From the IMG/VR virus record IMGVR_UViG_3300022723_000094, positions 540-64,539 of that record: a stretch of DNA of 64,000 nucleotides; one strand, written 5' to 3'. The DNA comes from a virus. Below the pieces are notes generated by a model. That model worked only from the letters and a program-made list of their open reading frames with translations. It was not told the origin of the DNA and ran no database searches. Within the stretch, counting starts at the first letter, position 1, and each line of letters opens with the position of its first letter. Shown in pieces: positions 34,791-38,489 of the stretch. Both the position numbers and the translations under genes were made by a program.

Positions 34791-35510
34791 CTAGTCGTGG
34801 TCGTACTCGTCGACCTTCACGGTGCCGTTGCGGAAGATGATGACGCGGACGCCATCGCCGAAGACCCGACGCATGATCTCGTCGGGGATGCCCGCCATGG
34901 GCGCGAACGCGTCGTCGAGCTCAGCCTGCATGGCCTTGCGCTGAACGTCGTCGTTCGGGAACTTGTCGTAGGCCAGCGAGAACGTGCCGTCGAAGTAGTC
35001 GTCGAGGTAGTCGAGCGCCTCACCTTCTTCCGTGATGACCTCGCCGTCGTCGTTGACCGAGATCATCTTGGTGCAGATGTCCGGACCGTTGACGCCGAAG
35101 ACGCACGCCTCGCCGTCGTTGAAGTACGGAGTGTACTGCGTCCAGCCGATGGCTGTGGCAGACGGGATGGCCGCGAACACTTGGTCGGCGACCGGCTTGA
35201 TGGCGTCGACGCCGATGGCCTCGATCTGCTTGTCGAGGTTGGCGATCGCGTCGATCACGTCTTGGATTGCGGAAGTCATGTGAATTCGTTCGAACTCCCA
35301 CGTCACGGTCATCCCGCCCTCGTGGTGTTCTGTCCTTTCTGTCAGTCGATATTGGGCTGCTCTTGCTGATCCCACCTGCTTGACGAACGCAGCAGCGAAG
35401 CGTTCCAGGTGGTCTCGACGGGTGGCCATGACCGATTCGATCCGGTCACGAAGTTTCCTGTCGAGTGTGAAGTGTGCCTCCAAGCTGTCGATCTTGAGGT
35501 ACTCCATCAC
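34791..35510 (-). CDS. Conserved acidic phage protein (possibly with an in-frame N-terminal extension)
   Basis: WTQYTPYFNDGEACVFGV...FGDGVRV...DEYDHD; internal Met at residue 78. Confidence 0.7.
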   Translation of the reverse strand: MMEYLKIDSLEAHFTLDRKLRDRIESVMATRRDHLERFAAAFVKQVGSARAAQYRLTERTEHHEGGMTVTWEFERIHMTSAIQDVIDAIANLDKQIEAIGVDAIKPVADQVFAAIPSATAIGWTQYTPYFNDGEACVFGVNGPDICTKMISVNDDGEVITEEGEALDYLDDYFDGTFSLAYDKFPNDDVQRKAMQAELDDAFAPMAGIPDEIMRRVFGDGVRVIIFRNGTVKVDEYDHD

Positions 35511-36043
35511 AGACCAAGTATACCCTGGACTTCAACGAAGGCCCCGTCGCGATCGAAACGTCTCACGTCGATGCCCTCGGCACGGCGCTTTTCGACGCCC
35601 CGTTCCAGGCCCCCGTGCTTGGAGTAGAGGTTGTCCGGCTTGACGGGCGTGTACTTCTCGCCCATCCGGGCCTTCCGGCGCTCGTTGACCGAAGCCTCGC
35701 AGACCTCCACCGGGGTGGTCAGGTGAAGGACGACCAGGCCCCGCTCGGCGAGGCGCTTCAGGCGGGCCATGCCCCACGTGGAGACGATGACCCCTTCCAG
35801 GAGGACGTGCTTGCCGGCGGTGTCGTACTCGTTGACCAGCGATTCGATGTCGTCGGCCGCGCCCTTCCAGGAGAAGCCGTCACAGCCCCCGCAGTTGGGG
35901 CCGTCGTACTTCCCGATGATGGCGGCGGAATCCCACTCCATCACCATCTTGTCCTGGTGAATCGGGTCCCCCATGACGTCGATGACCCGGCGCATGAGCG
36001 TGGTCTTCCCAGAGCCGTTCGTTCCGGCGATGATGATGATCAT
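35507..36043 (-). CDS. P-loop nucleotide kinase of thymidine-hypermodification clusters
   Basis: IIAGTNGSGKTT, GKYDG.NCGGCDG, VLLEGVIVS, C..SVNERR; ATGA overlap with the phosphatase gene. Confidence 0.82.
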   Translation of the reverse strand: MIIIIAGTNGSGKTTLMRRVIDVMGDPIHQDKMVMEWDSAAIIGKYDGPNCGGCDGFSWKGAADDIESLVNEYDTAGKHVLLEGVIVSTWGMARLKRLAERGLVVLHLTTPVEVCEASVNERRKARMGEKYTPVKPDNLYSKHGGLERGVEKRRAEGIDVRRFDRDGAFVEVQGILGL

Positions 36044-36450
36044 CCAAGGCCTCCTGCGAGTAGTGCCGCCTCGAAGACGGGGTTGGCGATGGCCCGCGGG
36101 CGGACCTCGCGGATGTGGGCAATGGCTTCCTCCGGGGTCCAGCCCCGTCGGATCAGGTAGAGGGCGATGAGGGTGGCGGAGCGGTTCCGTCCGGCGTGGC
36201 AGTGCACCAGCACTGTCCGGCCTTCTGCGTGCCACAGCTCCAGATCCTCGAGAGCCTTGCCGAAGAGGTCGGGCTTGAAGTACTTCCCGTCCGGGATCGC
36301 GTACTCCGAATACCGCTCGACCATGTCCTGCACTTCCTGGGGCGCACCCTTCAGGACCGTACAGATGACAGCCTCAGCTCCGCTCTCGCGGATCATCTCC
36401 GGCTTGGGCATAGAGCCCACCCAGAGGTTCGGGATCACTTCACGTAGCAT
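36040..36450 (-). CDS. Dual-specificity / PTP-like CX5R phosphatase
   Basis: VIPNLWVGS, VLVHCHAGRNRS, AIAHIREVRP.A.ANP.F. Confidence 0.92.
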   Translation of the reverse strand: MLREVIPNLWVGSMPKPEMIRESGAEAVICTVLKGAPQEVQDMVERYSEYAIPDGKYFKPDLFGKALEDLELWHAEGRTVLVHCHAGRNRSATLIALYLIRRGWTPEEAIAHIREVRPRAIANPVFEAALLAGGLG

Positions 36451-37444
36451 CGTCCCACCTCACGGGGCTGGCCAGGTCTTCGGTGCGTGTGTAGTCGAAC
36501 AGCATGTCCGACCACGTGTAGTTGAGGGTCGTGGCGATCTTGCCCACCCCTTCGCGACGGCCCGTCCACCGTCCCCCGACCTCGCCGAGCGGACGGGTGG
36601 GGAACAGCTCCTTGCGGTCGTCCCACATCCTGAGCTTCAGGTCGGGCAGCTTGGCTTGAAGGGCGATCGCCCGCCCCAGCTCCGAGTCGTGCGACCGACC
36701 GGGGTACTGGGACTGTGATGTGATGTTCTGCCGGTACTCGCACAGGAGCACTTCAAACGAGAACCAGTTGAGGTCAAGGTCACGCTCTTCGCGCAGCCAC
36801 TCCTTCTCCTCGAGCGCGACCCAGTTCGTGAGCTGGATCGTGGCCGGATCGTTCTTCTTGTGCAGTCCCCGCAGTTCCGGCCGAAGCCAGGCCAGGGCCT
36901 CGCGAGGCGTCGGACCACCGTGCGGCCGGATGTCCAACCAGTGGTGCTTGAGGATGCCCGCCATGAGGAGGGTCTCGTACAGCTTCATGCTGCCGTACCG
37001 CCCGTTCATAGGGACCGTGCAGATGTACCGCCAGTCGTCTTCGAAGCTGGTGCCGGGAGGCCAGAACTCCGTGACCCAGCGGGCGTACCCGAGCATGAAG
37101 TCGGTGAACCGCTTGATCCCGTAGATCGCTCGACGCTCTCGTCGGATCTCGAAGAACGGATACATGTTCTCCATCCAGCACCGGAACGTCTCTTCGTCCT
37201 CAAGGACGCTTTCAGCCGTGGGCCACGACTGGGCGATCAGCTCCCCGGTCGAGACGCAGTAGGGTCCGATGTAACAGCCGCCCAGGAACCAGACGGGATC
37301 CGGAGAGTCCTTCGCCTGGTGGACGGCCAGCTGCATGTGGGGGTCCGGCCCGCCCCCGAGGATCTCGTAGTAGCAGAACTCCGGAAACATCTTCCGGTGC
37401 CACAACGGATCCGTCGGGACGTGGTCGAGGTTACGCTTGCCCAA
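36440..37444 (-). CDS. Amino-acid:DNA-transferase-like protein (aGPT-Pplase2/3-type helical family)
   Basis: RRERR, GRYGSMKLYE and FEVLLCEYR..YPG. The C-terminal E..LCEY motif is shared with the 5-hmdU kinase at 29.8-30.6 kb. The clade cannot be fixed by eye. Confidence 0.68.
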   Translation of the reverse strand: MGKRNLDHVPTDPLWHRKMFPEFCYYEILGGGPDPHMQLAVHQAKDSPDPVWFLGGCYIGPYCVSTGELIAQSWPTAESVLEDEETFRCWMENMYPFFEIRRERRAIYGIKRFTDFMLGYARWVTEFWPPGTSFEDDWRYICTVPMNGRYGSMKLYETLLMAGILKHHWLDIRPHGGPTPREALAWLRPELRGLHKKNDPATIQLTNWVALEEKEWLREERDLDLNWFSFEVLLCEYRQNITSQSQYPGRSHDSELGRAIALQAKLPDLKLRMWDDRKELFPTRPLGEVGGRWTGRREGVGKIATTLNYTWSDMLFDYTRTEDLASPVRWDDAT

Positions 37445-38489
37445 GCCACCGCTCCAGGTTCTCGAAGGCTTGGTAGTCCTCGACCTGGACGGGCGGGGAC
37501 TTCATGAAGCATGCGGACGGGGGCAGGATAGGCCCACCCTCACCGCGGTCCAGCGCCACGCGGGCACATCGGATCGCATCCATGATGACTCCGGCGGAGT
37601 TGGGTGAGTCGACCACTTCGAGCTTCAGCTCCATGATGATCGGCGCGCCACCGAAGCCGGTGCCTTCGAGACGGATGTGCGCCCACTTGCGGTCGCCGAG
37701 CCACGGCACGTAGTCGGACGGGCCGACGTGCACCTGGTCCGCGGGCAGCTCGACGCCCATGACGGAGGTGACCGCCTGGGTCTTGCTGACCTTCTTCGAT
37801 CGAAGCCTGCTTCGATCGAGCATGTTCATGAAGTCGGTATTGCCGCCGACGTTCAGCTGGCTCGTCCTCGTGAGGGTGTAGCCGCGGGCGTGCATCAGGT
37901 TGGCCAGGACGCGGTGGACGATCGTCGCACCGACCTGACTCTTGATGTCGTCGCCGATGATGGGCAACCCCGCATCCGTGAACGCTTGGGCGAACTCCGG
38001 ATCCGAGGCGATGAAGACCGGGATGGCGTTGACGTACCCACAGCCTGCTTCCAGAGCCGCCTGCGCGTAGAAGCGCACAGCGTCCTCAGAGCCGACAGGT
38101 AGGTAGCCGACAACGATCTCGGCACCGCTGTCCCGTAGCACCTGCGCGACGTCCACGGAAGGCTCAGGAGCCTCCAGGACAGTGCCCTGGAGCGTGGGCC
38201 CACAGCCGTCGAGGGTCGGTCCCCGCTGGACGATCACCCCCGTGGGGGGAACCTCCGCAAACTGCAACGTGCAGTTGGGTTCCGCGACGATGGCATCGGC
38301 GAGATCGACGCCTACCTTGCGGGCATCGATGTCGAAGGCCGTGACGATCTCGACGTCGCCCGGGGCGTAGCCGCCAATCCGTGGGGCCATGACCCCAGCC
38401 GGGGCTTCCTGGTCCCTGTAGAACTCGATGCCTTGGACAAGGGAGCTGGCACAGTTGCCAACCCCCACGATTGCGACTTTGATGGTCAT
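37431..38489 (-). CDS. ino1: myo-Inositol-1-phosphate (inositol-3-phosphate) synthase
   Basis: IVGVGNCASSLVQG, GDDIKSQVGATIVHR, QLNVGGNTDF, SKKVSKTQAV, GPSDYVPWLGDRKWA, VDSPNSAG; full length, motifs intact. Confidence 0.96.
   Translation of the reverse strand: MTIKVAIVGVGNCASSLVQGIEFYRDQEAPAGVMAPRIGGYAPGDVEIVTAFDIDARKVGVDLADAIVAEPNCTLQFAEVPPTGVIVQRGPTLDGCGPTLQGTVLEAPEPSVDVAQVLRDSGAEIVVGYLPVGSEDAVRFYAQAALEAGCGYVNAIPVFIASDPEFAQAFTDAGLPIIGDDIKSQVGATIVHRVLANLMHARGYTLTRTSQLNVGGNTDFMNMLDRSRLRSKKVSKTQAVTSVMGVELPADQVHVGPSDYVPWLGDRKWAHIRLEGTGFGGAPIIMELKLEVVDSPNSAGVIMDAIRCARVALDRGEGGPILPPSACFMKSPPVQVEDYQAFENLERWLGQA

Follow-up and report, generated by a model that had tools for sequence, protein, structure and literature searches.

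The window analyzed here is a 64,000-nucleotide stretch of IMG/VR record IMGVR_UViG_3300022723_000094 (positions 540 to 64,539) and represents most of the complete 69.6-kb genome (63% GC) of an uncultured phage. The phage is kin to PaMx11/Pam3-like siphoviruses, as seen in a tail protein and in proteins resembling Pam3 gp33/gp34, and its ribonucleotide reductase (RNR) DNA is similar to that of PaMx74, PaMx28, and PhiJL001. Four overlapping genes on the minus strand encode an Ino1-type myo-inositol-3-phosphate synthase (MIPS), a predicted DNA-base transferase of the amino acid:DNA transferase family (AADT/Pplase2), a CX5R phosphatase, and the P-loop subunit of a putative kinase of 5-hydroxymethyldeoxyuridine (5-hmdU) in DNA. 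Here, we report this cassette, its relatives in other viruses, and a predicted pathway by which inositol would be placed on thymidine.

Enzymes of the overlapping gene run

A first-pass annotation, made by a model that saw only the letters and a list of open reading frames (ORFs), had described the four genes as an overlapping run. The junctions, read from the sequence, agree with it in position and in extent of overlap: 14 nt between MIPS and transferase, 11 nt between transferase and phosphatase, and 4 nt between phosphatase and kinase, with AGGAGG 8 nt upstream of the kinase start (Table 1). The first overlap hinges on a TTG start codon 14 nt ahead of the MIPS stop; use of the next ATG would drop transferase residues 9 to 18, which are alignable in homologs. 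The run extends to a fifth gene, which has a 4-nt overlap with the kinase stop and whose 239-aa product had no homolog in 69 related loci (surveyed below); this protein is probably translationally coupled to the kinase and outside the conserved cassette. On the minus strand, no terminator-like site was found from 42000 to 31426.

The MIPS matches PF01658 (5e-35) and, over residues 3 to 348, Mycobacterium tuberculosis Ino1 (1GR0; E = 1.9e-132, 445 bits). The characteristic blocks GDDIKSQVGAT, NVGGNTDF, SKKxSKTQAV, and DSPNSAG are kept, and the full-length match upholds the earlier description of the enzyme as intact. Its TIGR03450 score (500.9 bits, 2e-150) falls short of the equivalog cutoff of 638, which marks it as a divergent member of the family with a predicted enzyme identity. 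The next solved relative is 6K96, a five-membered cyclitol-phosphate synthase (1.5e-61, 212 bits). Cells make myo-inositol from glucose-6-phosphate in two steps, MIPS and then a phosphatase.

The transferase (36440-37444) was assigned to its family by homology and fold. A direct profile match is lacking: PF18724, the AADT model, did not match in Pfam (E ≤ 0.1; whole genome, E ≤ 1), and a PHROG scan was also empty. The profile check that the first-pass annotation had proposed came out positive for the homologs, since, among 251 database relatives, most of those at 35 to 43% identity (E down to 1e-65) carry PF18724, scoring 27 to 37 bits (cutoff, 26.2). An AlphaFold (AF2) model built from 47 sequences (pLDDT 96.5) has the two-helical-bundle, helix-hairpin-helix (HhH) glycosylase-like fold of PaMx11 gp46 and matches the gp46 crystal structure 8Z2N with VIA Z = 17.0 (root mean square deviation, 3.2 Å; 244 residues). 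The runner-up folds, DUF2419 and HhH glycosylases, gave Z = 9.2, and the top BFVD viral models were AADT-domain proteins (TM 0.6 to 0.79).

In gp46, E243 is a metal ligand, C247 is the catalytic cysteine, and W146 and K150 are nucleophile-site residues, as seen in the structure (PMC11472151). Alignment with hhalign sets E231-V-L-L-C235 of the window protein over gp46 E243-T-I-L-C247, and Y150/K154 over W146/K150; the overall probability is 9%, with a template of one sequence, and the motifs nonetheless align. C235, Y150, and K154 are invariant among the 47 subclade sequences. By its modeled fold and by transitive homology, the protein is a member of the AADT family, as the first reading had supposed, in a separate subclade with about 13% identity to gp46 and a C-terminal extension of ∼50 residues. 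It is co-encoded with the 5-hmdU kinase two genes downstream, as well as with the helical-domain protein, the thymidylate synthase (TS) homolog, and the dCMP deaminase; most of the 69 related loci show this linkage of transferase, kinase, and 5-hmdU source. Searches with the 334-aa protein and a high-GC relative (tblastn) found no match in 50,697 cultured-phage records, no relative turned up when 185,579 species genomes were scanned, and the subclade is so far confined to uncultured viruses.

The phosphatase exceeds the PF00782 cutoff (52 bits against 33.5; 8e-14) and has the P-loop HCHAGRNRS at residues 83 to 91; profile and HCX5R motif thus bear out its earlier naming as a CX5R phosphatase. 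An Asp in AIPDGK, read from the sequence alone, lies ∼30 residues before the Cys. The closest solved structure is PTPMT1, a phosphatidylglycerophosphate phosphatase (1.1e-9).

The P-loop protein carries the Walker A motif GTNGSGKTT and has the sole PF18748 (HMUDK_HMUD1) match in the 69.6-kb genome, which is borderline (29.8 bits; cutoff, 27). It is 35% identical to PaMx11 gp49 (YP_009196302; 98% coverage, E = 2e-16), a 5-hmdU DNA kinase by experiment (Lee et al., Table 1, PMC8989533). The first-pass annotation had cast this protein as a second kinase that phosphorylates inositol, a role ruled out by the gp49 orthology and the single genomic copy, and had placed the 5-hmdU kinase at 29.8 kb, where there is merely a helical-domain protein with 45% identity to the PaMx11 gp50 region. 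It is well supported that the P-loop and helical-domain proteins together form the one 5-hmdU DNA kinase of the phage, and that 36440-37444, with its catalytic Cys/Glu motif, is its single transferase of the AADT fold. It is likewise well supported that the phage is equipped for 5-hmdU DNA, by way of dCMP deaminase and the TS homolog; the latter is 51% identical to PaMx11 gp51, adjoins the cassette in most related loci, and would be the hydroxymethylase furnishing 5-hmdU. In RefSeq and PHROGs, gp49 is labeled "terminase small subunit" (phrog_800), which the published kinase assay contradicts (PMC8989533). This mislabel of the 5-hmdU kinase family is spread through many phage records.

Table 1. 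Cassette, pathway, and neighboring genes, with positions in the window
Product	Positions	Strand	Length (aa)	Start, stop, or match
MIPS/Ino1-type myo-inositol-3-phosphate synthase	37431..38489	-	352	ATG to TAA
Predicted AADT/Pplase2-family transferase, phosphatase-linked subclade	36440..37444	-	334	TTG start
CX5R dual-specificity-type phosphatase	36040..36450	-	136	ATG start
5-hmdU DNA kinase, P-loop subunit	35507..36043	-	178	Start at ATGA
Protein of phrog_9564 (function unknown)	34791..35510	-	239	GTG start
5-hmdU DNA kinase helical-domain protein, PaMx11 gp50 counterpart	29793..30737	-	314	PF18723, 3.2e-37
Thymidylate synthase homolog, candidate dUMP hydroxymethylase	28416..29447	-		PF00303, 4.4e-19
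dCMP deaminase (dUMP supply)	23543..24205	-		PF00383, 1.2e-21
RNA-ligase-family protein	32223..33314	-		PF09414, 2.3e-19
Protein matching "cysteine dioxygenase"	31439..31978	-	179	phrog_4786, 1e-30; no Pfam match
Carbamoyl-phosphate-binding half of aspartate/ornithine carbamoyltransferase	24829..25527	-	232	PF02729, 1.7e-25

Related cassettes in other viruses

A profile search of the viral contig collection (IMG/VR) with the transferase subclade gave 69 loci. A phosphatase homolog lies directly 3′ of the transferase in 55 of the 69 (tblastn). Most of the remainder have an ORF of ∼145 to 190 aa in the phosphatase position, grouped with the phosphatases by BLASTP, or a long transferase fusion; on the most divergent branch, whose transferases are at 26 to 29% identity, the ORF that comes next bears (I/L)HCEAGRGRS. 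Some database homologs are single proteins of ∼500 aa, AADT at the N terminus and dual-specificity phosphatase (DSP) at the C terminus.

MIPS was found on the same strand, 1.06 to 2.76 kb upstream of the transferase, at 29 of the 69 loci (53 to 75% identity), or 25 of the 57 whose contigs reach at least 1.3 kb upstream. The MIPS-bearing loci range from 36 to 65% GC, with transferase identities to the window protein down to 28% (26% in the MIPS-centered set described below), and at L079 the order is rearranged but clustered (kinase, transferase, phosphatase, MIPS). Across loci, MIPS is far more conserved than the transferase, as expected of an enzyme acting on a small molecule. A Tet_JBP dioxygenase gene replaces the TS homolog in ∼20 of the 69, roughly half of which also carry a ParB_N gene.

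Two further enzymes recur beside the transferase. An FkbM-family methyltransferase (PF05050, 4e-7) is often encoded between MIPS and transferase or between transferase and phosphatase (L009:9983-10639, L028, L043, L044, L066, L096, L110, L113, and L122) and could O-methylate a polyol adduct. A radical S-adenosylmethionine (SAM) enzyme with a SPASM domain is encoded directly 5′ or 3′ of the transferase, with or without MIPS (L033:9060-9989, L013, L017, L020, L026, L030, L048, and L062).

A MIPS profile matched 371 viral stretches in the contig collection, and neighborhoods were counted within 4 kb of MIPS for the best 80. An AADT gene is present in 58 of these 80, belonging to the window's subclade in 42 and to a canonical, Cr30-like type in 16; phage ino1 is thus linked to DNA transferases, as had been anticipated. 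Another 7 have 7-deazaguanine genes, 2 have a TS homolog with an FkbM methyltransferase, and 13 have no modification neighbor detectable by tblastn. Two of the 13 (L145 and L146:6855-11789) encode a TS homolog, dCMP deaminase, MIPS, and an HMUDK_hel-like 357-aa protein, together with a weak match to T4 beta-glucosyltransferase. When the MIPS sequences are dereplicated at 90% identity, 55 clusters result, of which 40 adjoin AADT and 47 adjoin recognizable DNA modification genes.

Among cultured phages MIPS is rare (19 of 50,697 records), and in all three lineages that have it, it stands among DNA modification genes. Caulobacter phage Cr30 (NC_025422.1; L002:697-9590, gp129 to gp114) has a sister cassette in the order gp129 (TET/SNF2-like), gp123 (AADT; PF18724, 1.3e-52), gp122, gp121 (MIPS), gp118 (minimal HAD-type phosphatase), and gp114 (P-loop protein that, like PaMx11 gp49, is labeled "terminase small subunit"). 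Its core (TET/SNF2-like, AADT, MIPS, HAD-type protein of 126 to 131 aa, and P-loop kinase) is repeated at 16 IMG/VR loci, only one of which (L131) has a gene like gp122, itself a weak match to a TET-associated glycosyltransferase. In Ralstonia phage RP13 (LC554890.1; L003:1912-11532), an HMUDK_hel protein (ORF120, 3e-47) and an HMUD2-type 5-hmdU kinase (ORF133, 1.4e-13) are encoded on either side of MIPS (ORF125), and the genome gave no PF18724 or DSP match. RP13 ORF132 matches the anti-CBASS protein Acb1 (8.7e-15). Stenotrophomonas phage Moby (Menderavirus; L001:5198-10612) has FolE, MIPS, a small ORF, QueC, a DpdA-like gene, and QueE. Besides Moby, MIPS is found with 7-deazaguanine genes at L109, L120, L132, L136, L140, L144, and L147; no AADT, kinase, or DSP was found in the 7-deazaguanine MIPS genomes.

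In the small protein of the Cr30-type loci, the motifs DxDGV, TGRS, K, and EDD are invariant. A PDB profile search with the 128-aa protein gave nothing meaningful, and Pfam gave at best E = 0.028 to HAD subfamily IIIB, in two members. Its model (pLDDT 87) has a HAD fold by Foldseek, with matches to the T4 Pnkp 3′-phosphatase domain, LNS2/lipin, and MDP-1 (probability 1.0, E of 2e-4 to 4e-3). Two unrelated AADT clades each join MIPS with a phosphatase, and the two phosphatases differ in fold as modeled. This convergence points to inositol or inositol phosphate as a co-substrate of the transferase and is the strongest single argument for it.

Predicted pathway and rival explanations

The cassette very probably specifies a thymidine hypermodification of the kinase/AADT type, and MIPS quite likely belongs to it in function. 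The best reading is a postreplicative thymidine pathway of the PaMx11/M6/ViI kind that would use a new nucleophile. That the product is an inositol-bearing base, with MIPS and the phosphatase supplying the nucleophile placed on 5-phosphomethyl-dU, we consider moderately likely. In such a pathway, the kinase would form 5-phosphomethyl-dU in DNA, MIPS would convert host glucose-6-phosphate to inositol-3-phosphate, and the transferase would swap the base-borne phosphate for a cyclitol hydroxyl. The CX5R phosphatase would strip the inositol phosphate, either before transfer (as an inositol monophosphatase) or on the DNA-bound adduct, and the predicted product is 5-(inosityl-O-methyl)-dU (5-hmdU + 162 Da) or a phosphate thereof. 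Subclade phages without MIPS would rely on the host for inositol phosphate or a related phospho-alcohol. Every locus with a GC fraction of at least 0.66 is without MIPS; this would fit actinobacterial hosts that make their own inositol phosphate and is no more than a hint of such supply.

The layout (RNR, transferase, tailoring genes, kinase, helical protein, and TS homolog) is shared with PaMx11, whose 5-AcNmdU pathway comprises gp46 (PUGT/AADT, the 5-PmdU glycinyltransferase), gp47 (flavin lyase), gp48 (acetyltransferase), gp49 (kinase), gp50, and gp51 (TS homolog); M6 is analogous. Besides the identities given above, the likeness to PaMx11 includes the transferase fold and the Cys/Glu motif. 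Unlike PaMx11, the window has a CX5R phosphatase in the tailoring gene slot and MIPS just upstream of the transferase, and its predicted donor is a cyclitol (phosphate) instead of glycine. The reported absence of tailoring genes for pyridoxal phosphate (PLP), radical SAM, flavin, and acetyltransferase enzymes holds for genes within ∼10 kb on either side of the cassette.

For a hydroxyl nucleophile in an AADT and an ether at the C5-methylene, there is precedent in the 5-NeOmdU of ViI, made with the serine:DNA transferase gp247 and O-linked (PMC8989533). In contrast to the window, ViI combines an amino acid donor with subsequent PLP decarboxylation and has neither a phosphatase nor a donor synthesis gene. 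ParB-dependent T-dioxygenase clusters (PNAS 2026, PMC13229309) match the ∼20 Tet_JBP-bearing loci of the subclade, whereas the window phage uses the prereplicative TS homolog route. That paper mentions neither phosphatase nor inositol for the T-dioxygenase clusters, and many clusters of the AADT/Pplase2 family are uncharacterized according to it. In the literature, we found no description of inositol or of a phosphatase partner in AADT hypermodification; full-text searches that paired inositol and phage DNA hypermodification returned glycosyltransferase name matches only. The known kinase-plus-transferase thymidine hypermodifications all carry amino acids or polyamines.

The cassette follows the same MIPS-then-phosphatase logic as cellular Ino1 and inositol monophosphatase. 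The phage phosphatases differ from the cellular monophosphatase fold in being CX5R or minimal HAD proteins, tied or fused to a DNA-base transferase. The outcome would resemble T4 glucosyl-hydroxymethylcytosine and base J, in which a bulky polyol on the pyrimidine hydroxymethyl shields DNA from nucleases. Those bases are made by nucleoside diphosphate-sugar glycosyltransferases and have an acetal (glycosidic) bond; the window route would differ in its phosphate leaving group, its HhH-fold transferase, and its ether to a carbocycle.

Several points weigh against inositol as the donor. About half of the transferase subclade is without MIPS, which is patchy on the transferase tree (at least 6 changes, with close sisters that differ). 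It is absent from a complete 82-kb genome with terminal repeats, where the genes are instead those for a radical-SAM/SPASM enzyme, transferase, phosphatase, kinase, and TS. Five records with MIPS-less loci, including a complete one, were searched for MIPS elsewhere on the contig and had none. No column of the transferase alignment tracks MIPS presence (top frequency difference, 0.44), which suggests either a common donor supplied by the host in many phages or another phospho-alcohol donor, with MIPS as an add-on. The phosphatase is retained without MIPS and so may have an inositol-independent role. The nucleophiles of the known AADT/Pplase2 donors (glycine, serine, putrescine, and 1,3-diaminopropane) are amines or the serine hydroxyl, not a secondary cyclitol hydroxyl. 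The 7-deazaguanine MIPS clusters are unexplained by an AADT model and hint at a role for MIPS beyond feeding a transferase. As to the order of steps, the fusions and the Pnkp-like HAD fold lean toward phosphatase action on DNA, and the analogy with inositol synthesis would lean toward dephosphorylation ahead of transfer.

Part of this evidence fits a transferase that takes another abundant host phospho-alcohol (sugar phosphate, glycerol-3-phosphate, or phosphoserine), the phosphate being a recognition handle that the phosphatase later removes and MIPS an optional gene that, in some phages, alters or broadens the pool of donors. We regard this as rather unlikely. It would account for a transferase-phosphatase pair that is near universal in the subclade and sometimes fused while MIPS is present at only ∼44% of loci, for the complete genome without MIPS, and for the lack of specificity residues that split MIPS-bearing from MIPS-less transferases. 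An anionic donor would also fit the invariant R149, which stands in place of gp46 Pro145 beside the nucleophile-holding residues. It leaves unexplained, however, why the very rare phage MIPS is mostly beside AADT genes of two clades, and why an unrelated phosphatase is paired with MIPS in the canonical AADT cassette.

Transfer of an amino acid or polyamine of the known type is unlikely. The phosphatase would then reset unreacted 5-phosphomethyl-dU to 5-hmdU, and MIPS would serve another role in infection (glucose-6-phosphate diversion, or an inositol signal or osmolyte) and travel with the cassette for regulation. The characterized AADTs, all of which use the donors listed above, the persistence of the phosphatase without MIPS, and the presence of MIPS in non-AADT settings (7-deazaguanine clusters and a replication module) are in keeping with it. 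However, a clearing phosphatase is neither present nor needed in the characterized pathways of M6, PaMx11, ViI, PhiW-14, SP10, and SH-Ab 15599. MIPS is, moreover, adjacent to, codirectional with, and often overlapping the transferase over 36 to 65% GC and to 26% transferase identity, and two nonhomologous phosphatases have been recruited beside it. Cyclization or oxidation of some other sugar phosphate by the MIPS homolog, possibly on a DNA-tethered substrate and yielding a different carbocyclic adduct, is very improbable, as the kinship with 6K96 indicates that the fold supports other cyclizations but the window MIPS is full length with intact motifs and much nearer genuine Ino1 (445 versus 212 bits), and its 53 to 75% conservation among widely differing phages is consistent with a small-molecule reaction that has stayed the same.

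With inositol kept as the favored donor, a wider reading can be put forward tentatively, in which phage MIPS marks a whole, so far undescribed class of DNA bases that bear cyclitols. Two AADT clades, each with its own phosphatase (CX5R or HAD), would ether-link inositol to the thymine C5-methylene, and in some phages FkbM-type enzymes would O-methylate it; the MIPS clusters of the 7-deazaguanine and hydroxymethyl-pyrimidine kinds may involve related chemistry. If DNA does carry such a carbocyclic polyol, natural nucleobases would gain a new chemical class, and a transferase family already of interest in enzymatic DNA labeling would have a broader range of donors. Given how widespread the cassette is (371 MIPS stretches, with most of the best 80 beside DNA modification genes), it would also amount to a major overlooked branch of phage anti-restriction chemistry.

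Neighboring genes

Other genes on the same strand lie near the cassette or the nucleotide genes (Table 1). The RNA-ligase-family gene is placed between those of the kinase and its helical-domain partner, which are neighbors in most related phages of the 69-locus survey. The protein matching "cysteine dioxygenase" has a like-named counterpart in Cr30 gp128, which stands beside the Cr30 AADT cassette. The gene for the partial carbamoyltransferase, of which only the carbamoyl-phosphate-binding half is present, adjoins the DNA polymerase gene and could encode one more tailoring or nucleotide enzyme.

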